Below are positions 5,382 through 37,199 of a stretch of 64,000 nucleotides of DNA, piece by piece. Under the pieces are notes generated by a model, which was given only the letters and a program-made list of their open reading frames with translations, made no database searches and was not told the origin of the DNA. The translations under genes and the position numbers were made by a program. This DNA is from Escherichia phage teqskov: the sequence record NC_054934.1; one strand, given 5' to 3'. The stretch's first letter is position 1. Each line of letters starts with the position of its first letter.

Positions 5382-7080
5382 TTGTGTATTGACCAGATGA
5401 AATAGAACTCATAGATGCAATTTTTTCTGTCCAATCACCACCAACGTCCCAATCAACTGTCCCAGCAACTTTCCAAGAAAGATTTCCATTTACTGTATTA
5501 GTCTGATTTCCTTCAACTAAAGTGGTAGCATCTCCTTTAACTGTAATGTCAGCATTACCTTCAACTACAATAGTAACATTACCTTTAACTAGGATAGTTC
5601 CATTACCTTCAACCGTCTTAGTTTCATCGCCTCGAACAAATATCGTATTGCTTCCATCTATTTGGTGAAGACGATTATCCATGTTGTAATAAATTTCTGA
5701 TCCACCGACGTTAGTCTTTTTATCACCGGCTACCAAAAAATTACCATCAGCGTTGGTTATATCATACAAATTATCAACAGTTTTTCTTGTTCTTCTCCCT
5801 GACGGTGATACTTCTTCATAAGTTCCAGTTGGATGAACTAATCTATATCGTTCTTGCCCAGGGGTATCATCAAATTCCTGAATATGTCCACTTTCAGTTT
5901 CCATTGTATGCACATAAGGATATTCGCCTTTATATGAAGAAACTGGTTCTTTGAATAAAATTCTCGAGTCATTTGGAATAGGAGGGTCAGCAGGGTCAGA
6001 AGATTTAGTTACAGTCGCAGCCATTGCCGATAAAGACCTAGCTGGAGTTTTCACTTCAACACCATATGATTCCAAATTCCCCGTAAGAATAATCATGGTA
6101 ACACGGGATGCACGGCCTTTTGTTTGTTGATACCACAATGAATCACGACCGGCTTTATATGCTTTTTCCCAATCTCCTGCTAACATAGCAGTTAACATTG
6201 TGTTAAATTTAGCTACACCGCCAACCCCCATCTGAAATGCCATATTTTCTAATGCCATTTGACGAGAACGGTTGACAGCTTGCCAGACTGGTCCTACTTT
6301 AGAATGCGATTTAATGTCACGTTGCATATCAGCCAAATCACGCTCAAATAAAGTCGTCGCCTCTTCCATTGTAATAGAACCTGGATTTCCTGTAATTTCA
6401 CGACCAACTTGTTTTGATAAAACTTTATTAATTTGAGCCATATCACGAACTGGCTGCTTCATGATAAGATGACCAATACCAATTGTCGGATATCCTTCGG
6501 TATCCCAATAAACTTTTAATCTTAATCCTTCATCACGGCGAAGCATTTCAGCCATTGACATATTTGGATTATCATCAGTTGGAATCTCTGATAGTGGTCT
6601 ATCATCGGGATTTATTGCGGTGTCTAAGTTACTATCTTGAATAACATTAGAAGAGGAATCATATCCTACTTCTCCGCCTTGGTTTAATACGTTAGTATCA
6701 TTTCCTAAACGTCTAGGATACTGCCCAGTTGGGTCAGAAAATCCTTCAAGTCTATTCGGTTTTTCGCGAACTATTCCACCATACGTGCCAAGGACAATTC
6801 CGTTAGTTTTCCATTTGTCTAAAAAATGACCGTAAACTCTAGTTCCTTCTACCGGTCCAGTAACAGAACCTCCAATTCCTGACATTGCTGCAGAAGTTAT
6901 AGGTTGAATAACTGACATCCATGGTAATTTTTCAGTTGGAATACCCATTACATCACCTTGTGCTCTTTGAGGTGGATGCAGACCAACAACACGAACACGA
7001 ACACGACCTAATTTTAATGGGTCCATTCTATCTTCAACAACACCAACAAACCAATTAAGGTTATTACTTATCATTTCCAT
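5353..7080 (-). CDS. 5: Baseplate hub subunit and tail lysozyme gp5
   Basis: 575 aa as T4 gp5; internal lysozyme domain (LRLKVYWDTEGYPTIGIGHLI) paralogous to gene e; C-terminal VxGxxxxx beta-helix repeats. Confidence 0.95.
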   Translation of the reverse strand: MEMISNNLNWFVGVVEDRMDPLKLGRVRVRVVGLHPPQRAQGDVMGIPTEKLPWMSVIQPITSAAMSGIGGSVTGPVEGTRVYGHFLDKWKTNGIVLGTYGGIVREKPNRLEGFSDPTGQYPRRLGNDTNVLNQGGEVGYDSSSNVIQDSNLDTAINPDDRPLSEIPTDDNPNMSMAEMLRRDEGLRLKVYWDTEGYPTIGIGHLIMKQPVRDMAQINKVLSKQVGREITGNPGSITMEEATTLFERDLADMQRDIKSHSKVGPVWQAVNRSRQMALENMAFQMGVGGVAKFNTMLTAMLAGDWEKAYKAGRDSLWYQQTKGRASRVTMIILTGNLESYGVEVKTPARSLSAMAATVTKSSDPADPPIPNDSRILFKEPVSSYKGEYPYVHTMETESGHIQEFDDTPGQERYRLVHPTGTYEEVSPSGRRTRKTVDNLYDITNADGNFLVAGDKKTNVGGSEIYYNMDNRLHQIDGSNTIFVRGDETKTVEGNGTILVKGNVTIVVEGNADITVKGDATTLVEGNQTNTVNGNLSWKVAGTVDWDVGGDWTEKIASMSSISSGQYTIDGSRIDIG

Positions 7081-8978: not shown

Positions 8979-9084
8979 TTCTATTATCTTCCATTCTTTT
9001 CTGTTGTTTGTTCTAAATGGAATTGAATGGAAGGAACTTAGACCCATTATACCACCAACAGTTATAAAGCATTATGAGGAATAT

Positions 9085-9615
9085 ATGTCGCAAGCTCTGC
9101 AGCAAATTTTTAACCAAGCAAATACAACTAATTTTGTAGTATCAATACCACATAGTAATACTACATCTGCTTTTACTTTAAATGCTCAGTCAGTTCCTAT
9201 TCCAGGAATTAGAATACCTGTTACTGATACCGTGACTGGGCCGTTTGGACTAGGCCGAGCACAACGTCCAGGTGTTACATTTGAGTACGACCCACTCATC
9301 GTGAGATTTATAGTTGATGAAGAGCTTAAGTCATGGATAGGAATGTATGAATGGATGCTAGGAACTAGTAACTATCTTACAGGCGAAAATACTGCCCAAA
9401 AAACAGGTCCTGAGTACATTACGCTTTACATTTTAGATAATAGCAAAACTGAAATCGTGATGTCAATAAATTTTTATAAGCCTTGGGTTTCTGACCTGTC
9501 TGAAGTAGAATTTAGCTACACAGAAGATTCAGACCCAGCCTTAGTATGCACAGCAACGATTCCTTATACGTATTTTCAAGTAGAAAAAGATGGAAAAATT
9601 ATAGCAGAAGTTTAA
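9085..9615 (+). CDS. 3: Tail completion and sheath stabilizer protein gp3
   Basis: 176 aa from ATG 9085 (MSQALQQIF) with GAGGA SD; the longer ORF-track version (9004) is an upstream extension. Confidence 0.85.
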   Translation: MSQALQQIFNQANTTNFVVSIPHSNTTSAFTLNAQSVPIPGIRIPVTDTVTGPFGLGRAQRPGVTFEYDPLIVRFIVDEELKSWIGMYEWMLGTSNYLTGENTAQKTGPEYITLYILDNSKTEIVMSINFYKPWVSDLSEVEFSYTEDSDPALVCTATIPYTYFQVEKDGKIIAEV

Positions 9616-9664
9616 TGCTTCAGTTTCATGTGTTATAATCTTAACTAAATTTGAGGAGAAACAT

Positions 9665-10389
9665 ATGAAACTAATCTTTTTAAGTGGTGTAAAGCGTAGT
9701 GGAAAAGATACTACTGCAGATTTTATTATGAATAATTATTCTGCAGTTAAATATCAACTTGCTGGTCCTATTAAGGATGCATTGGCTTATGCATGGGGTG
9801 TATTTGCAGCAAACACTGACTATCCTTGTTTAACTCGTAAAGAGTTTGAAGGAATTGACTATGATCGTGAAACTAATTTAAATCTGACTAAATTAGAAGT
9901 AATTACGATTATGGAACAAGCATTTTGCTATCTTAATAGTAAAAGCCCAATTAAAGGTGTGTTTGTTTTTGATGACGAAGGAAAAGAATCAGTTACTTTC
10001 GTAGCATTTAATAAGATTGCTGACGTTATAAATAATATTGAAGATCAATGGTCAGTCCGTCGTCTGATGCAAGCCCTAGGTACGGATTTGATTGTTAATA
10101 ACTTCGACCGCATGTATTGGGTAAAATTATTTGCTTTAGATTATCTTGATAAATTTAACTCAGGTTATGATTATTATATCGTTCCTGATACTCGTCAAGA
10201 TCATGAAATGGATGCGGCTAGGGCGATGGGTGCTACAGTAATTCATGTAGTTCGTCCTGGTCAAAAATCCAATGATACACATATTACAGAAGCTGGATTG
10301 CCAATTCGTGATGGCGATTTAGTAATTACAAACGATGGTTCTCTTGAAGAACTTTTTTCTAAAATTAAAAATACACTAAAGGTACTATA

Positions 10390-10390
<1 letters not shown>
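9665..10390 (+). CDS. 1: Deoxynucleoside monophosphate kinase gp1
   Basis: 241 aa as T4 gp1; P-loop GVKRSGKDT. Confidence 0.92.
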
Positions 10391-11087
<697 letters not shown>

Positions 11088-11099
11088 CTTCATAAAGTT

Positions 11100-11129
11100 G
11101 TTTACACGCTGATGAGGTAGTGATACTAT
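11100..11129 (+). promoter_or_regulatory. T4 early (sigma70) promoter; -10 lies inside an inverted repeat (PeSL-like cassette)
   Basis: GTTTAC, 18 nt spacer, TGaTACTAT; inverted repeat gatgaggta/tacctcatc at 11111-11138. Confidence 0.6.
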
Positions 11130-11159
11130 TACCTCATCAAAATTAATTAGGAAAATAAA

Positions 11160-11417
11160 ATGAAAACTTATAAAGAGTTTGCTACAGAAACTATTATCAC
11201 TGAATCTTCTCATGGTATGGAAGTAAAGCTTGGAATGGCTTTAGCTGAAGCTGAGCGTCTTTTTTCTCGTATTAAAGAACTTGCTGCTGCAGTCGATCCT
11301 TCATCTTTTAAAGGAGACCAAACTAAAGTTAAAGCACTTTTAGCATTATGCTCTGATGCAGGAGAAATCGCTAAGAACGGTTCTAAGATGAAGAAACGAT
11401 TAGAAGATTTAAAATAA
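11160..11417 (+). CDS. Internal-protein-like ORF with capsid-targeting N-terminus (MKTYKEFATE)
   Basis: 85 aa; N-terminus resembles T4 IP capsid targeting sequence with I/L-x-E cleavage motifs. Confidence 0.55.
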   Translation: MKTYKEFATETIITESSHGMEVKLGMALAEAERLFSRIKELAAAVDPSSFKGDQTKVKALLALCSDAGEIAKNGSKMKKRLEDLK

Positions 11418-23211: not shown

Positions 23212-23757
23212 ATGAGAAAAGCACTACTCGCTGGTCTATTGGCCATTTCAATGATGGCACATAGCTCCGAGCATACTTTCAGTAATGTCCAACTCGATAA
23301 CATGCGTTACGCGTATCAATTCGGGGAACAATTTTCTAAGGATGGAAAATATAAAACACACAAAAATATCCACAAGAGCGGATTAGGTCATATAATGGCT
23401 GCTATTTTATGGCAAGAAAGCTCTGGCGGAGTTAATTTAAAATCTAAACCAAAGCATCACGCCTACGGAATGTTCCAAAATTATTTGCCTACTATGCGAG
23501 CAAGAGTTAAGGAACTTGGTTATAATATGACCGATGCTGAAATAAAAAGAATGTTGAATAAACGGTCCAATTCAGCTTCCTGGGCGTACATTGAACTTTC
23601 TTATTGGTTAAATATACATAAGGGCGATATAAGAAAAGCAATATCCTCTTATAATTCGGGATGGAATGTTAAAGCAGGTTCTAAATATGCTTCTGAAGTC
23701 CTAGAAAAGGCTAATTACCTTAAAAATAATAAACTTTTGGAAATAGTAAATGACTAA
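23212..23757 (+). CDS. Secreted lytic-transglycosylase-like protein (vs.1 position)
   Basis: 181 aa; signal peptide; WQESSGG and YGMFQ motifs resemble the SLT domain. Confidence 0.55.
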   Translation: MRKALLAGLLAISMMAHSSEHTFSNVQLDNMRYAYQFGEQFSKDGKYKTHKNIHKSGLGHIMAAILWQESSGGVNLKSKPKHHAYGMFQNYLPTMRARVKELGYNMTDAEIKRMLNKRSNSASWAYIELSYWLNIHKGDIRKAISSYNSGWNVKAGSKYASEVLEKANYLKNNKLLEIVND

Positions 23758-31945: not shown

Positions 31946-32473
31946 ATGAACGCTAAAGATATTTTCAACCTGGTAAATTACAACGATGGTAAATTTAAAT
32001 CAGAAGCACAAAGAAAGTTCTTTAATGACATCTCAATCGGAGGTGAAATCACTGTTGATGGAGGACAAATTTACAAATCTCGTTGGAATTGGATCGTTAT
32101 TATCGATGAGATTGGTATTGTAGAAATTTACAAGAATACGAATAAAAATCGTACATTACACTGGTCTCGTGATACTAACGAACAGTACAAAAAGGATAAA
32201 GCATCTAAATTATCTCGTGTAACTCAAGAAGATATTGAGTTCATCAAGAAAGATATTTTGATGTATGATAACTTAATTGCTGAAGAGCAAGCTGTTATTG
32301 ATAAATTTGACGAGATTAAAGCTTCTCGTGAAATTCCTGATTTTATGAAAGAATCAGTAAATGAACGATACACTCTCATTTCAGAGCGTATTGAAACTTA
32401 CAAAAAGCAAAGAGCTGAACGCCAAAATACTCTTCGGAAGTTTGAAGAACGGTTAAAGACGGTACTCGCATAA
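31946..32473 (+). CDS. Hypothetical protein
   Basis: 175 aa ORF with GGAGG SD. Confidence 0.5.
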   Translation: MNAKDIFNLVNYNDGKFKSEAQRKFFNDISIGGEITVDGGQIYKSRWNWIVIIDEIGIVEIYKNTNKNRTLHWSRDTNEQYKKDKASKLSRVTQEDIEFIKKDILMYDNLIAEEQAVIDKFDEIKASREIPDFMKESVNERYTLISERIETYKKQRAERQNTLRKFEERLKTVLA

Positions 32474-32528
32474 CCGCTTTATACCAAGGATGGTATAATG
32501 GTTCTAAGCCCTTTTAATTGAGATTATT

Positions 32529-32936
32529 ATGAAACAGTTGATAATTAAAAGATTGAATTTATTGATATGTTGTTTATGTATAGTAATTGCATATGGTTAT
32601 TACGCAATTAATGATTATATGCATTATAAAGATTATGATGTTACTGTAGTTAATACCCTTACAGGAACTCAAGGAAAGGGGTCTAGTTTATCGTTTATTG
32701 CTGTATATGAACTCAAAGACGGTTATAGATTTAGTGAATATATTTCCCCAGAGATGTATTCATCAATAGAAAAAGGCGATAATATTACTGTAAGTTTACG
32801 TCCTTTCGACGTAAAACAGACATTGTTTGATAATATTGTTTGGTTCTTTGGAATGGTATTAGTTCAATCTGTGTGTGGTGCTTATATAGTCTGTTCTATC
32901 TTATTCTGTATATTTAGTAAAATTGAAATTGAGTGA
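32529..32936 (+). CDS. Membrane protein
   Basis: 135 aa; N- and C-terminal hydrophobic helices. Confidence 0.5.
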   Translation: MKQLIIKRLNLLICCLCIVIAYGYYAINDYMHYKDYDVTVVNTLTGTQGKGSSLSFIAVYELKDGYRFSEYISPEMYSSIEKGDNITVSLRPFDVKQTLFDNIVWFFGMVLVQSVCGAYIVCSILFCIFSKIEIE

Positions 32937-32943
32937 GGAAAAT

Positions 32944-33834
32944 ATGTCAGTAGTAATTAATAATGTCAATGCAGTAATTAAATCTTTAGTTAATAAGAAA
33001 ATGATGAATGAATGGACTGTACTTCGTCGTGGAGAGCCAGATAAATTTTTTCATAGATTTAACCCAACTTTGGATTTGAATGTTATTGATAAAGATGTTC
33101 ATGCAGAAATTTTAGATAAGTTTAAAGTTGATATTGGATTTGGATTAGAAAAACATTTACAGCGAACAAACGGATCTGGAATGAGTTTATCTAATCGCAT
33201 TATGAAAGCACTTAATAAAATTGGAGCATTGTCTCGTATTAACGCGAGTGAAATCCTTCGCAATTATAATAAAGGATACGACCTTTATGGTCGACTAATG
33301 CCGAAATTATCATTTGACCAAATGATTGCGGATTTGTGGGAAAATCAACGACGATTATTAGCATTAGGCGCTCGATTAGCTAAAGGTCTAGATAAACAAA
33401 TGATTTTTAAGACCAATAATACAGAAGACCTTAAATGCTTTAAATTTAGTATTCGCGGAGATGATTATTACATCAGAGCTCGCTCTACAGATTATGTTAA
33501 TATGGGGCATCATCTCTGTTTAGCTTTTGAAGTTTTAAAAGAAGTCGGAACATTAGAATATTCATCTGGTGCAAAATGTCCAATTGGTTCAAGTTGTATT
33601 TTAATTTATCGCCCGGATGAATCCAGTTCAACTAAATTGCCTACAAAACCTGTACCAGTTCGTAGTAACGAAAAACATTCTGAACAAATTGATTATTTTA
33701 ATAAGCAAATTGAAGAGCTGAATATTTCTATTCAACAGTATGACGATGAAATTTTCAGACTATCTGGATTGAGTAGTAAAGCTAAATCTGAGCGTGAAAA
33801 ATTAATTAAAATTGTTGATTTACTTAAATCTTAA
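32944..33834 (+). CDS. Hypothetical protein, member 1 of four tandem ~300 aa genes with C-terminal coiled coil
   Basis: 296 aa from ATG 32944 with GAGGAAA SD. Confidence 0.5.
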   Translation: MSVVINNVNAVIKSLVNKKMMNEWTVLRRGEPDKFFHRFNPTLDLNVIDKDVHAEILDKFKVDIGFGLEKHLQRTNGSGMSLSNRIMKALNKIGALSRINASEILRNYNKGYDLYGRLMPKLSFDQMIADLWENQRRLLALGARLAKGLDKQMIFKTNNTEDLKCFKFSIRGDDYYIRARSTDYVNMGHHLCLAFEVLKEVGTLEYSSGAKCPIGSSCILIYRPDESSSTKLPTKPVPVRSNEKHSEQIDYFNKQIEELNISIQQYDDEIFRLSGLSSKAKSEREKLIKIVDLLKS

Positions 33835-33842
33835 GGAACACT

Positions 33843-34868
33843 ATGAAAACTCGTTCTCAAATTGAAGATATGGTTCGTAATGCCAGCTATACTCGTGATG
33901 TTATGACATTTTTGTGCCAAAATAATTTAGACCCTGATAAAGTTAATCGTGATATTCACTTTAAGTATATGAATAGCAGTGAATGGTTACGTCATTTTGA
34001 TAAAGCTGGATATATTACACAAATGACTGCTCGTGAGCAGCTCACCGATTTCTGTAAAACTATTGATTATAAAAATCCTCTATTTGTTCAAGGCGTCGGT
34101 CAGAGTAAGGTTGATTTATCAACAGGATTTTTTAATCCAAATCATTATCGTCTTGAATGGAGATTTATTGCTCTATTCCGTAAACAATTAAAGCAAATTT
34201 TGTCTACTGCTAGTCGATTAAAAGGCTCTGATATTAACTTAAAGAATTTGAAATTTGATGGTTATACTCTTCAGATGGAAGTAAGACCGTTAAAAGAAAA
34301 TAATAGAACTGCACGAATTAGCTTTAAACCTAATACAAAAAATTCTCTTTCAATTTGTGAATGTCTTAAATCACAGTTGACAGAAGCATTTAAGTATATG
34401 GATGTTGTTGCTGCTGTTCAATCTAAGATTTTACCTCGTTTTGAACGATTTAAATTAGACACAACAACATATGAACTTGATATGGTTGTTTCATTTAAAT
34501 ATGATTTTTTGAGAAAGGACGAAGTCCCGCAAGAGAAAAAGCAGGAAGTACAAGATAACTTAAATTTAAATTTATCCAATTACTTATCAAACGATCCTAA
34601 ATTTTGGATGTATAGTTCAGGTAATAAAGATGCATGGAAATTTAATAAAGTGAATTTTCTTCCTATTGAAAATCCGAGTCTTAAACCTGTTGAAAAATGG
34701 CACGCGGATGCGATTGAGAAGTCTATCAAGGCAGTAGATGATGAACTCGTTAAAGCTACCAATGAAGTGTTAGAAGCTGAAAAGATGCTAGAAAAAGCAC
34801 AAGAAAAAGTCAAAAATCTGACAAAGCAACGTTCTAAACTGAACAATGCACTAAATGCACTAAACTAG
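33843..34868 (+). CDS. Hypothetical protein, member 2 of the tandem family
   Basis: 341 aa; C-terminal heptad coiled coil. Confidence 0.5.
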   Translation: MKTRSQIEDMVRNASYTRDVMTFLCQNNLDPDKVNRDIHFKYMNSSEWLRHFDKAGYITQMTAREQLTDFCKTIDYKNPLFVQGVGQSKVDLSTGFFNPNHYRLEWRFIALFRKQLKQILSTASRLKGSDINLKNLKFDGYTLQMEVRPLKENNRTARISFKPNTKNSLSICECLKSQLTEAFKYMDVVAAVQSKILPRFERFKLDTTTYELDMVVSFKYDFLRKDEVPQEKKQEVQDNLNLNLSNYLSNDPKFWMYSSGNKDAWKFNKVNFLPIENPSLKPVEKWHADAIEKSIKAVDDELVKATNEVLEAEKMLEKAQEKVKNLTKQRSKLNNALNALN

Positions 34869-34897
34869 TTTACTTTGCCACAAGGATGTGGTATAAT
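34868..34897 (+). promoter_or_regulatory. T4 early promoter
   Basis: GTTTAC ... TGgTATAAT. Confidence 0.6.
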
Positions 34898-34925
34898 GTT
34901 CTTACTTTCTACTGAGGAGATTATT

Positions 34926-35927
34926 ATGACTCGTAACGAATATATCAAATCATTCAATAGCGTTATTGATGATAAAGCTATACCGATGTTTGGTCAAAAT
35001 ATCATTCTTTCTATTATCAATCAATGGCTCAATAGTGTTGATGCAAGTATTGTTTCTTCTACTAAATTTATTCATGAAATTCGTAAAATTTCTAGCCGTG
35101 TAGATAAAGATGTTATCAAGAAAACTTTTAAAGAGTCTCGTCTTCTTTCATATTTGGTTAATCGGGATATTCTTGGTAATTTTGGGAAAGAAATTAAACG
35201 AACCAAAGATGTAGTAGGATATAATTGGTTCGGTGATGTTAATTCTTATCATCTTAATAATAAAGAAGACCCTGAGAATATTTTTACTCGTCGTTGGATT
35301 AGTAATTTCAGACTTTTCAAAGGACAAATTCTAAAATCAGCTTCTAAATTATGTTATGGCGATTATCGTCAAATTCATCCTTTGGCTTCTGATATGATTA
35401 TCGTAAAAGAATATGAGCTTGATGAAAATAAAGTAGCTATTTTTGTGAATTATGGATTTTTTACACCAAACGCTAACCAAAAGAATATTAATAAATTTTT
35501 CTCAATTGCTAGCACTATAACTCGTCAGTTAGAGACTGCATTACTTTGTATGGAAACAGTAGAAAATATTCATACATATCCTTTTAAGAATATATGCGGA
35601 TGGGAAGGATATAAAATTGTAATTAGTCTTCGTGAAGTGAAATGTGCTTATTCACCTACTGATAAAGAAATTTATCAACAAAAATGTGAGGAAATTGTGA
35701 ATACTCCTAAAGAAGAAACTACTCTTGAGGAACTAATGGATAATCTTGATGATTCGCCTGAACCGGTAGAAATTCGTCCAGAAGTTATTGCATTAGAAAA
35801 AGCTTATAAAGAAGTTCTAGAAATTTCTAATAAAGCGCAGAAAGAATATGAGCAGGCTAAAAAGATTTGGGAAGAATCCGTTAATCGTCTTGATCGTCTT
35901 GAACAAGCTTTACAGTTAATTAAGTAA
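34926..35927 (+). CDS. Hypothetical protein, member 3 of the tandem family
   Basis: 333 aa from ATG 34926 with GAGGAG SD; C-terminal coiled coil. Confidence 0.5.
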   Translation: MTRNEYIKSFNSVIDDKAIPMFGQNIILSIINQWLNSVDASIVSSTKFIHEIRKISSRVDKDVIKKTFKESRLLSYLVNRDILGNFGKEIKRTKDVVGYNWFGDVNSYHLNNKEDPENIFTRRWISNFRLFKGQILKSASKLCYGDYRQIHPLASDMIIVKEYELDENKVAIFVNYGFFTPNANQKNINKFFSIASTITRQLETALLCMETVENIHTYPFKNICGWEGYKIVISLREVKCAYSPTDKEIYQQKCEEIVNTPKEETTLEELMDNLDDSPEPVEIRPEVIALEKAYKEVLEISNKAQKEYEQAKKIWEESVNRLDRLEQALQLIK

Positions 35928-35979
35928 TTTAAAGCCAAGGATGGCTCGGAGTATAAATCATTAACCAAGTGAGAAGAAC

Positions 35980-36906
35980 ATGAAAACTCGTAAACATTAT
36001 ATTGATTATTTTGACAGTCTTATTACTAAACATCGTGATTATCAGAAAGGACATAGAGAAGTAATCAATAATATTCTTCGTGATTTTTTAGACTATATTG
36101 GATGGGAAAACCATATTTGTAAAGATACACAAAATGCGTATTCACATTCTCTTGGTTCTTTGCTCGAGTGGTTCAAACGTTCCCGATTACTATCTTCTGT
36201 GATAGCTGTTAATAATGTTAAAAAATTTATGTATCCAAGCTACATTGAGACTAATGTATCAAATGCTAGTGTTGTTACATTTAATATTATTAACGACGTG
36301 AAAAGAACTTATTTAGAAGAATGGTTTTCTAAAGATAGTAAAGAAAAATTTGCTAGTGAATTTTCACACGAATTCAATAATAACGTGAATATGCTTTTTA
36401 AGCATTCTCGTAGACTGTTTTGTCATGGTGATAACCGTACTATTAATGTGAATGTAAAAGACTGGGTTACGGCTAAATTCACTCCATCGTCCCAGAATGG
36501 ACAATTTGAATTGTCAATTATCGTTTGCGCTCCGCACGAGATATATAAAAATCTTCCGTATATGAAACCACGCGAAGCTAATAAACACAATGAAACTATT
36601 AGTTCTTTGGCTTATAATTTGCGCGTGTTATTATCTGATATGGATGTAGTCAAATCCTTTGATGATAATACGAATTATGGTCTTTCACTGTTTGAAACTA
36701 AATTTGTTATTAAATTAAAGGACCCTAGTGAATTTAAACCTACGCCAAAATTCAATCATGGGAATGATACTATGAAAGAAGAACGCGAATATCTCAATGC
36801 TCGTTTGATTGAAGTTGAAAAACAAATTGAAGAGCATACTAAAGTTCTTAAGGTTTTAACCGCCAAAGCAAATGGTTTACGTAATGCTATTGAGGTATTG
36901 AAATGA
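35980..36906 (+). CDS. Hypothetical protein, member 4 of the tandem family
   Basis: 308 aa; N-terminal MKTRKHY like member 2 (MKTRSQI); C-terminal coiled coil. Confidence 0.5.
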   Translation: MKTRKHYIDYFDSLITKHRDYQKGHREVINNILRDFLDYIGWENHICKDTQNAYSHSLGSLLEWFKRSRLLSSVIAVNNVKKFMYPSYIETNVSNASVVTFNIINDVKRTYLEEWFSKDSKEKFASEFSHEFNNNVNMLFKHSRRLFCHGDNRTINVNVKDWVTAKFTPSSQNGQFELSIIVCAPHEIYKNLPYMKPREANKHNETISSLAYNLRVLLSDMDVVKSFDDNTNYGLSLFETKFVIKLKDPSEFKPTPKFNHGNDTMKEEREYLNARLIEVEKQIEEHTKVLKVLTAKANGLRNAIEVLK

Positions 36907-37199
36907 AAAAGCGTCTATTAGAAGACATTGCAGAAGCTTCAGATTTTCCTGAATGGACTCCATGCGCCGGGTTTGATAAAGGACTGCTAGTTACTGACGA
37001 TTTAGATTTTAAACCTCCAGCATGGGATGCCATTATGGCTATGGTTAAACGTCGCGAAAGGGCTTCTAAAAACGTTCCTAATTGCCCTGAATGTGGAACT
37101 GAACAGGTGCAATTGGTCCATTGGCAGACTAGTAATCTTCGTTATAAATGCCGCCATTGTAAACACCGATTTGACCGAGAAGAAAATGACAAAGCGTAA
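36903..37199 (+). CDS. Zinc-ribbon protein
   Basis: 98 aa with CPECG...CRHCKH four-Cys motif. Confidence 0.45.

Follow-up and report, generated by a model that had tools for sequence, protein, structure and literature searches.

The closest described relative of the genes considered here is nrdC.5 of phage T4, which has a published role against the bacterial defense protein Dsr1. When a compensatory deletion had removed nrdC.5 from a T4 clone, the clone could plate neither on ECOR17 nor on an MG1655 strain with the ECOR17 dsr1 gene; plating was restored either by deletion of dsr1 or by supplying nrdC.5 in trans (Srikant et al., 2022, eLife, PMC9391042). The same study calls nrdC.5 a T4 early gene and describes the region as dispensable in the laboratory (PMC9391042). 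Dsr1 is a SIR2-domain defense protein with a C-terminal sensor, common to Avs7, that recognizes the major capsid protein of Drexlerviridae (PMC13581612). Here, we analyze a 64,000-nucleotide (nt) stretch of Escherichia phage teqskov (NC_054934.1; hereafter, the window), in which four adjacent genes at positions 32,944 to 36,906 include an ortholog of nrdC.5. The four genes are, with high probability, paralogs that are homologous over most of their length and not in their C-terminal tails alone.

Two groups of phage proteins invite comparison by role. DSAD1, the inhibitor of DSR2 from SPbeta-type phages, resembles NrdC.5 in being a phage protein that counters a defense-associated sirtuin NADase and sets a precedent for stoichiometric inhibition of a defense protein (PMC11087589, PMC10973363). 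The likeness drawn here is one of role: DSAD1 targets DSR2, NrdC.5 targets Dsr1, and binding of NrdC.5 to Dsr1 is presumed. The T4 genes tifA, dmd and adfA (the 'anti-TA island'), ipI and ipIII are likewise early, dispensable in the laboratory, variable and needed on particular hosts (PMC9391042). They encode unrelated small proteins, whereas the products of nrdC.3 to nrdC.6 are predicted to share one fold, occur in one to four copies, measure about 300-340 amino acids (aa) and end in coiled-coil tails.

The window is a segment of a Tequatrovirus (T4-like) genome, with the plus strand as the direction of early transcription. At the DNA level, the 4-kb array matches 507 phage records, the best being those of Escherichia phages JLBYU31 and PE37 (identity of about 97%). 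With names taken from the annotation of the RB51 record, the array consists of nrdC.6 (32944..33834, 296 aa), nrdC.5 (33843..34868, 341 aa), nrdC.4 (34926..35927, 333 aa) and nrdC.3 (35980..36906, 308 aa), the last of which overlaps nrdC.2 by 4 nt. All four open reading frames (ORFs) lie on the plus strand, each is preceded by a Shine-Dalgarno sequence, and their coordinates, lengths and start codons are as given in an original prediction made from the letters of the window. For nrdC.4, the program's ORF list begins at TTG 34875; the ATG at 34926 is supported instead, because the Shine-Dalgarno sequence GAGGAG precedes it by 7 nt and the -10 element of the promoter ends at 34897. The flanks follow the gene order of the T4 annotation, with nrdC.11, nrdC.10, nrdC.9, nrdC.8 and nrdC.7 upstream, and nrdC.2, nrdC.1, nrdC, the endonuclease VII gene and nrdD downstream. 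The window nrdC.5 protein has 100% identity to its counterpart in phage TH09 and 92.8% to T4 NrdC.5; it occupies the same position and matches PF23882 over its full length, and we regard it as the T4 ortholog. The products of nrdC.6, nrdC.4 and nrdC.3 are distant paralogs that lack a PF23882 match and belong to other Pfam and PHROG families.

The original prediction had taken the four genes for tandem paralogs, a claim that BLASTP is insufficient to establish: all-against-all comparison gave marginal matches only, the best being 23% identity over 173 aa between nrdC.3 and nrdC.4 (E 0.047 in a tiny database). One profile was built per ortholog group, from homologs in a protein database and in phages of other genera, and the profiles were compared by hhalign. 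Shallow profiles (8-16 sequences per group) gave 40-50% for nrdC.5 and less than 5% for nrdC.6, so that deeper profiles and bridge sequences were needed. In hhalign, nrdC.4 and nrdC.3 were then matched at 98.3% (E 1.7e-14), nrdC.5 and nrdC.4 at 93.9% (E 1.6e-7, collinear across 247 columns) and nrdC.5 and nrdC.3 at 29%. Against a merged nrdC.3/4/5 profile, nrdC.6 reached 45% with a score of 37, the aligned portions being exactly the two motifs that are visible by eye; reversed-sequence profile controls all scored 20 or less.

The connection to nrdC.6 was strengthened by intermediates. When 1.84 billion representative proteins were searched exhaustively with the hidden Markov model (HMM) of nrdC.6, only 15 proteins reached E <=0.001, four of which are full-length intermediates that also match the nrdC.5 HMM. 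One such intermediate, the metagenomic protein P0268, gives 51 bits against the nrdC.6 HMM and 32 bits against that of nrdC.5. The nearest cultured relatives of these intermediates are genes of Kanagawavirus IME523 and Mosugukvirus PM2, present there as single copies directly upstream of nrdC.2, and together with four metagenomic proteins they constitute our bridge group B. The group B profile matched nrdC.6 at 99.0% (E 6e-18; 58 bits for nrdC.6 on the B HMM), nrdC.5 at 98.6% (E 7e-16, with an alignment that reaches the C-terminus) and nrdC.4 at 94.2%. Homology of the superfamily across three database families is thus supported above the reversed controls by the chain of hhalign comparisons from nrdC.3 through nrdC.4, nrdC.5 and group B to nrdC.6, and this chain, the HMM searches and the Foldseek results described below confirm the paralogy.

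Searching the 64-kb window for the family returned no member beyond these four. We rejected nrdC.8 (31946-32473, 175 aa), two genes upstream of nrdC.6, as a detectable member, given that its hhalign scores against every group (15-19) are at control level; its product ends in a heptad tail, too (p = 0.0015). A recent paper takes nrdC.8 for a nucleotide reductase owing to the gene name (PMC13275509).

Pfam and PHROGs distribute the four proteins over three separate families, one for nrdC.6, one for nrdC.5 and one for nrdC.4 plus nrdC.3. DUF7235 (PF23882) is matched by nrdC.5 only (409.7 bits, E 1.2e-122, residues 1-341; gathering score 30 bits), which also belongs to phrog_2351; nrdC.3 gave 13.4 bits against PF23882, below the cut-off and in the tail only, and nrdC.6 and nrdC.4 gave no match. 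phrog_1435 is matched by nrdC.4 (E 2.6e-169) and nrdC.3 (E 5.2e-99), and both window proteins are assigned to PF26897 via their homologs, all 97 of which in the joint nrdC.3/nrdC.4 alignment carry it as a precomputed match. Similarly, nrdC.6, the most diverged member, matches phrog_2257 (E 4.1e-152) and is assigned to PF26899 via homologs on which that family is precomputed. Pfam, NCBIfam and PADLOC returned no informative domain for the four proteins except DUF7235, and searches of PDB sequences with two profiles and one sequence gave nothing significant. Sub-threshold matches to Cas6b_C, BrxC, PgrA and prefoldin, which fell mostly on the coiled-coil region, were dropped. Many homologs of nrdC.3 to nrdC.6, and even nrdC.10 and nrdC.11, are labeled 'thioredoxin', 'putative thioredoxin' or 'Thioredoxin, phage-associated' in GenBank or UniProt, and one homolog record reads 'inhibitor of host transcription'. 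These labels appear to have spread from the locus name and not from similarity: the nrdC.x names denote a map position beside nrdC, and the 'thioredoxin' label evidently derives from them.

From an architectural perspective, each protein may be partitioned into four: a helical bundle at the N-terminus, an alpha/beta sandwich core that carries two motifs common to the family, a linker that is disordered, and a C-terminal heptad helix of 45-60 residues. Single-chain AlphaFold2 (AF2) models of nrdC.4 (predicted local distance difference test score, pLDDT, 83.8) and nrdC.6 (pLDDT 76.9) have a common order of bundle, long helix, hairpin, helix, hairpin, linker and C-terminal helix. The long helix of both models bears the motif A(S/A)(R/K)L..G(D).R, and the linker is of low confidence, variable in length and rich in proline or acidic residues. 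In Foldseek searches of BFVD, the nrdC.4 model retrieved nrdC.3 of fPS-65 (E 7.6e-8) and nrdC.6 of JS10 (E 5e-5, prob 1.0), and the nrdC.6 model retrieved nrdC.3 of fPS-65 (prob 0.90). Both models match the same uncharacterized proteins of about 300-340 aa in about 10 other Straboviridae genera, encoded by T4-like phages of Pectobacterium, Enterobacter, Klebsiella, Erwinia, Serratia, Yersinia, Citrobacter and Acinetobacter. The N-terminal MKTR that the original prediction had correctly noted in the second and fourth ORFs belongs to a wider motif, M(K)TR..(Y/E)I..F, which nrdC.4 also carries (MTRNEYIKSF). Among the Tequatrovirus versions of nrdC.6, nrdC.5 and nrdC.4, the N-terminal bundle has a recurrent variable patch at residues ~20-60, and residues ~60-180 are almost invariant. 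The superfamily alignment conserves hydrophobic, glycine, proline and alanine positions and one near-conserved arginine or lysine; it contains no invariant polar constellation, which argues against an enzyme.

All four proteins show heptad periodicity in their last 42 residues (six heptads, against a required minimum of four), with 75-92% hydrophobic residues at a/d positions as compared to 17-27% elsewhere (composition-shuffle p = 0 to 0.016), and the AF2 models of nrdC.4 and nrdC.6 contain the corresponding long helices, so that the predicted C-terminal coiled coils are borne out. In nrdC.6, two heptad helices (33670..33828; aa 243-272 and 278-295; p = 0.002) are separated by a kink at G275 in the AF2 model. 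The heptad helix region of nrdC.5 (34689..34865; ~aa 283-341; p < 0.0005) rests on the heptad test and the superfamily alignment, that of nrdC.4 (35778..35921; aa 285-332; p = 0.016) is a single long helix in the AF2 model, and that of nrdC.3 (36763..36903; ~aa 262-308; p = 0.007) aligns with the nrdC.4 tail; all are encoded on the plus strand. An L..A(L/I)..L motif ends all members of the family, the Acinetobacter proteins included. The Tequatrovirus nrdC.5 tail differs from other family members by an insertion of exactly one heptad (DDELVKA).

What is conserved in the tails is the structural feature, not the sequence. End-anchored identity between the last 42 residues of the window paralogs is only 2-29%, whereas across genera no other part of nrdC.6, nrdC.4 and nrdC.3 is conserved as well as the tail (58-76%, versus 22-56% in most other segments). 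The proposed architecture of a variable domain fused to a constant tail is not supported in that form: the globular parts are homologous, with common core motifs and one predicted fold, and the tails differ strongly between paralogs. Tails that are specific to each paralog but well conserved within three of the four sets of orthologs are the pattern expected if each paralog self-associates via its own tail. The heptad tail most likely makes each protein a homo-oligomer, and the original designation as an oligomerization tail is plausible, judging from the heptad test and the single-chain AF2 models.

Members of the family are always found between nrdC.10 and nrdC, and their number varies from one to four. 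Single copies are present in Kanagawavirus and Mosugukvirus; two adjacent copies in Acinetobacter phage Acj61 (subfamily Twarogvirinae); three in Mosigvirus (nrdC.6, nrdC.5 and nrdC.3) and in Dhakavirus and Gaprivervirus (nrdC.6, an nrdC.5-like gene and nrdC.4); and four in Tequatrovirus. The two Acj61 proteins, p120 and p121, compare with the family at noise level in HMM and hhalign searches, so that their membership rests on Foldseek, synteny and architecture. No relation to the family was found for Acj61 p118 (268 aa), which we rejected. Elsewhere in the Acj61 locus (9028-11322), the adjacent genes p076 and p077, each of ~372 aa, are annotated as copies of each other, and accessory genes may often be duplicated in tandem in genomes of this type.

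Six Tequatrovirus loci were used to estimate identities and NG86 ratios of nonsynonymous to synonymous substitution rates (dN/dS). Mean protein identity is 92% for nrdC.5, 93% for nrdC.4 and 77% for nrdC.3, as compared to 95-100% for neighboring genes other than nrdC.2 (78%). Correspondingly, dN/dS is 0.20, 0.22 and 0.30 for these three genes, versus 0.01-0.14 for most neighbors, the exceptions being nrdC.7 (0.27) and nrdC.2 (0.26). Two allele classes of nrdC.3, about 60% identical to each other, exist in Tequatrovirus, visible as tblastn bands of 92-99% identity in ~136 records and of 54-61% in most others; the minimum amino acid identity of nrdC.3 among the six loci is 0.60. Between the two classes, the first 85 residues are 81% and the tail 76% identical, and the central domain and the linker 47% and 38%. 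A variable domain combined with a conserved tail, as originally proposed for the array, is therefore found between the two nrdC.3 allele classes and not among the four paralogs.

The two-class pattern extends beyond the family: nrdC.3 and the overlapping nrdC.2 (35980-37199) form a mosaic block with two classes, with minimum amino acid identities of 0.60 and 0.62, respectively, and of at least 0.86 in the other compared genes. The alternative nrdC.3 allele (loci L001, L004 and L005) is close to the allele of Mosigvirus JS09 (L010), which suggests exchange between genera. A 299-aa database protein, P0056 (on contigs of up to 167,058 bp), is an in-frame chimera of the nrdC.5 middle part (to ...KFNKVN) and the C-terminal half of nrdC.3 (MLFKHARKLF...), with nrdC.4 deleted and the junction at a short common (N)xVN stretch; paralogs of the array can thus recombine into hybrids. 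The array has also seen small genes enter and leave. nrdC.7 (32529-32936), which encodes a predicted membrane protein, lies between nrdC.8 and nrdC.6 in Tequatrovirus and after nrdC.2 in Mosigvirus and PM2, and a different ORF of 71 aa separates nrdC.6 from the nrdC.5-like gene in Dhakavirus and Gaprivervirus.

An early promoter of its own had been claimed for the third gene at 34868, and this claim held up. The site (34868..34897, plus strand; GTTTACT-N17-(TG)G-TATAAT) was identified in a consensus scan, matches 10 of 12 consensus positions, has a TG extension, is among the best matches in the region and is kept upstream of nrdC.4 in Tequatrovirus, Gaprivervirus and Dhakavirus. Because promoter-like matches across the region are not above chance (34 found, 29.6 expected), the evidence rests on the quality and conservation of the site. 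Its spacer contains a 7-bp inverted repeat around AGGA. A degenerate and possibly active copy of this module is located upstream of nrdC.3 (35927..35957, plus strand; ATTTAA-N19-TATAAA, with AGCCA-AGGA-TGGCT in the spacer), and the full GTTTAC...CCAAGGATGG...TATAAT form is retained upstream of nrdC.3 and nrdC.5 in Mosigvirus. Upstream of nrdC.7, a promoter-like site of the extended -10 type (TGGTATAAT; 32471..32499, plus strand) has ACCA-AGGA-TGGT in its spacer. This putative promoter probably drives nrdC.7, nrdC.6 and nrdC.5, which are separated by gaps of 7 and 8 nt; the same module sits directly before nrdC.6 in Dhakavirus, Gaprivervirus and Mosigvirus. The module, composed of GTTTAC, a spacer with CCAAGGATGG and TATAAT, thus accompanies several copies and stands before different paralogs in different genera, which suggests that gene and promoter were duplicated together.

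The small AGGA-centered inverted repeat between the -35 and -10 elements is found in the window at 32479-32498, 34876-34893, 35933-35946 and 23330-23349, and in other compared loci at ~6868-6885 (L006), ~6817-6834 (L007), and ~5949-5966 and ~6945-6962 (L010). Its arms co-vary between copies and genera (TTATACCA/TGGTATAA, TGCCACA/TGTGGTA, AGCCA/TGGCT, CTTCCA/TGGAGG, CATCCA/TGGATG and CAACCA/TGGTTG). As RNA, the repeats would form hairpins of 5-8 bp with modest z-scores (-1.6 to -2.5), one of which was flagged as terminator-like. They could represent an operator, a 3'-end or processing hairpin of the upstream transcript, or simply part of a copied promoter. The Shine-Dalgarno sequence of nrdC.4 (GAGGAG, 34913-34918) includes GGAG, which those of the other three paralogs lack. 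GGAG is the site cut by the T4 RegB endoribonuclease in early mRNAs (PMC1702504), and its presence upstream of nrdC.4 alone may point to differential post-transcriptional shut-off.

What might be the function of such a family? The original prediction recognized none, and thereby overlooked the published anti-Dsr1 role of nrdC.5. Its more general idea of anti-defense proteins is upheld for nrdC.5, given the T4 data and the 92.8% identical ortholog, and is an extrapolation for nrdC.6, nrdC.4 and nrdC.3. By orthology, the window nrdC.5 would neutralize Dsr1. Literature searches on nrdC.3, nrdC.4, nrdC.6, DUF7235 and anti-Dsr1 activity returned only Srikant et al. (2022) and no later work on mechanism. 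Early expression, the lack of a catalytic signature, the presumed oligomerizing tail, variability and dispensability, taken together, incline us, if by a modest degree, to the view that the family comprises early, oligomeric, non-enzymatic inhibitors that act stoichiometrically on host immune proteins. The copy number of one to four, the raised dN/dS, the nrdC.3 alleles, the variable patch and the dispensability are consistent with signatures of an arms race. We envision a scenario whereby, between nrdC.10 and nrdC of T4-like phages, a single ancestral gene was tandemly duplicated along with its early-promoter module. The products would be cytoplasmic proteins, expressed early, which most likely assemble into homo-oligomers through their amphipathic heptad helices. 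NrdC.5 would probably bind the SIR2/NADase protein Dsr1 ahead of its triggering by the capsid protein or other late phage proteins, and nrdC.6, nrdC.4 and nrdC.3 might be copies that were retargeted to other host defense proteins or to variants thereof.

Several points weigh against this interpretation. Functional data are confined to nrdC.5, and the predicted structures cover nrdC.4 and nrdC.6, not nrdC.5 itself. Oligomerization through the tails is a prediction from sequence. nrdC.6 is the weakest link in the paralogy: direct hhalign comparisons with each of the other paralogs are weak (0.5-6%), and its membership depends on intermediates and structure. It is also as conserved as the neighboring genes (97% identity, dN/dS 0.10). 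Throughout, dN/dS is well below 1, and relaxed constraint could account for the elevated rates. In Foldseek, members of the family reach low TM-scores only (0.2-0.47), so that the structural link rests on Foldseek probability and shared match lists; we attribute these scores to a mobile arrangement of domains, but they leave the structural evidence less than conclusive. Finally, the globular bodies are basic (net charge +5 to +9; the tails are neutral, and whole-protein pI is ~9 in three of the four), a property that would also suit binding of nucleic acids.

The last point leads to an alternative in which the four proteins are nucleic-acid-binding or host-takeover factors that act, for example, on the nucleoid, transcription or mRNA, and in which the Dsr1 phenotype of nrdC.5 is indirect. 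Early and dispensable genes are indeed frequent among the host-takeover genes of T4, and no mechanism has been published for nrdC.5; on balance, we judge this explanation improbable. An only slightly smaller chance is given to the notion that the four paralogs assemble as subunits into one hetero-oligomeric complex, held together by the coiled-coil tails and serving a single function, be it anti-defense or not. The genes are adjacent, co-oriented and tightly spaced, down to 7-8 nt between nrdC.7, nrdC.6 and nrdC.5 and the overlap of nrdC.3 with nrdC.2, and all four heptad tails end in a similar L..A(L/I)..L(K) motif. However, with copy numbers of one to four among genera, no fixed stoichiometry is conserved; the paralog-specific tails are what would be expected for self-association that avoids cross-pairing; and nrdC.5 alone sufficed in trans against Dsr1, the text of PMC9391042 being silent on whether the T4 clone had kept the other paralogs.

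More remote still is the possibility that the proteins are decoys of a phage structural protein, with an alpha/beta core that copies the tail-terminator fold of the lambda gpU type, so that early soluble copies occupy the host sensors of structural proteins without activating them. The nrdC proteins have no sequence similarity to gpU-type tail-terminator or tail-completion proteins and differ from them by an extra N-terminal bundle and the C-terminal coiled coil; their genes are under early rather than late promoters and lie outside the structural cluster, and nothing indicates a virion component. As neither fold similarity of a kind that implies homology nor late expression nor a structural role was found, we rejected membership in this protein class. 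Next to no credence can be given to the reading of the ORFs as thioredoxin-like redox proteins, which is what many GenBank records say and for which those annotations are the only support. There is no thioredoxin or glutaredoxin match in Pfam or NCBIfam, a CxxC motif is absent from all four sequences, and the fold predicted by AF2 differs from the thioredoxin fold; membership in the thioredoxin and glutaredoxin families is refuted.

The preferred notion of early stoichiometric inhibitors could conceivably be extended to an ancient, syntenic platform of retargetable inhibitors throughout Straboviridae, although we consider this broader version rather unlikely. Here, a conserved scaffold and a paralog-specific oligomerizing helix would be combined with variable surfaces, namely the N-terminal patch at ~20-60 and the central domain swapped between nrdC.3 alleles, and duplication and inter-genus exchange of alleles would re-aim these surfaces at pattern-recognition sensors of the Dsr1/Avs7 type, making each paralog a distinct anti-defense protein. 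Such proteins may act by occupying the sensor groove for the phage structural protein.

The genes were already known as T4 ORFs, and the role of nrdC.5 is published. Set against Pfam, PHROGs and the papers searched, the apparently new element is that they form one Straboviridae superfamily with a common architecture, a copy number of one to four, paralog-specific tails, recurrent variable patches and exchanged alleles. Three families of domains of unknown function are thereby joined into one superfamily, and the widespread 'thioredoxin' misannotation is corrected. T4 is the best-studied phage, yet three-quarters of these genes are without a known function. Because one member, nrdC.5, disables Dsr1 and all share common ancestry, the other three are good candidates for acting against other bacterial defenses; nrdC.6, nrdC.4 and nrdC.3, together with their one to four homologs in other T4-like genera, Acinetobacter phages included, are accordingly nominated as counter-defense candidates, and the parts that may matter for function are the tail, the variable patch of the N-terminal bundle and the central domain. 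If the alleles and copy number of the array indeed set which defenses are overcome, then the prediction of host range for therapeutic T4-like phages would benefit.

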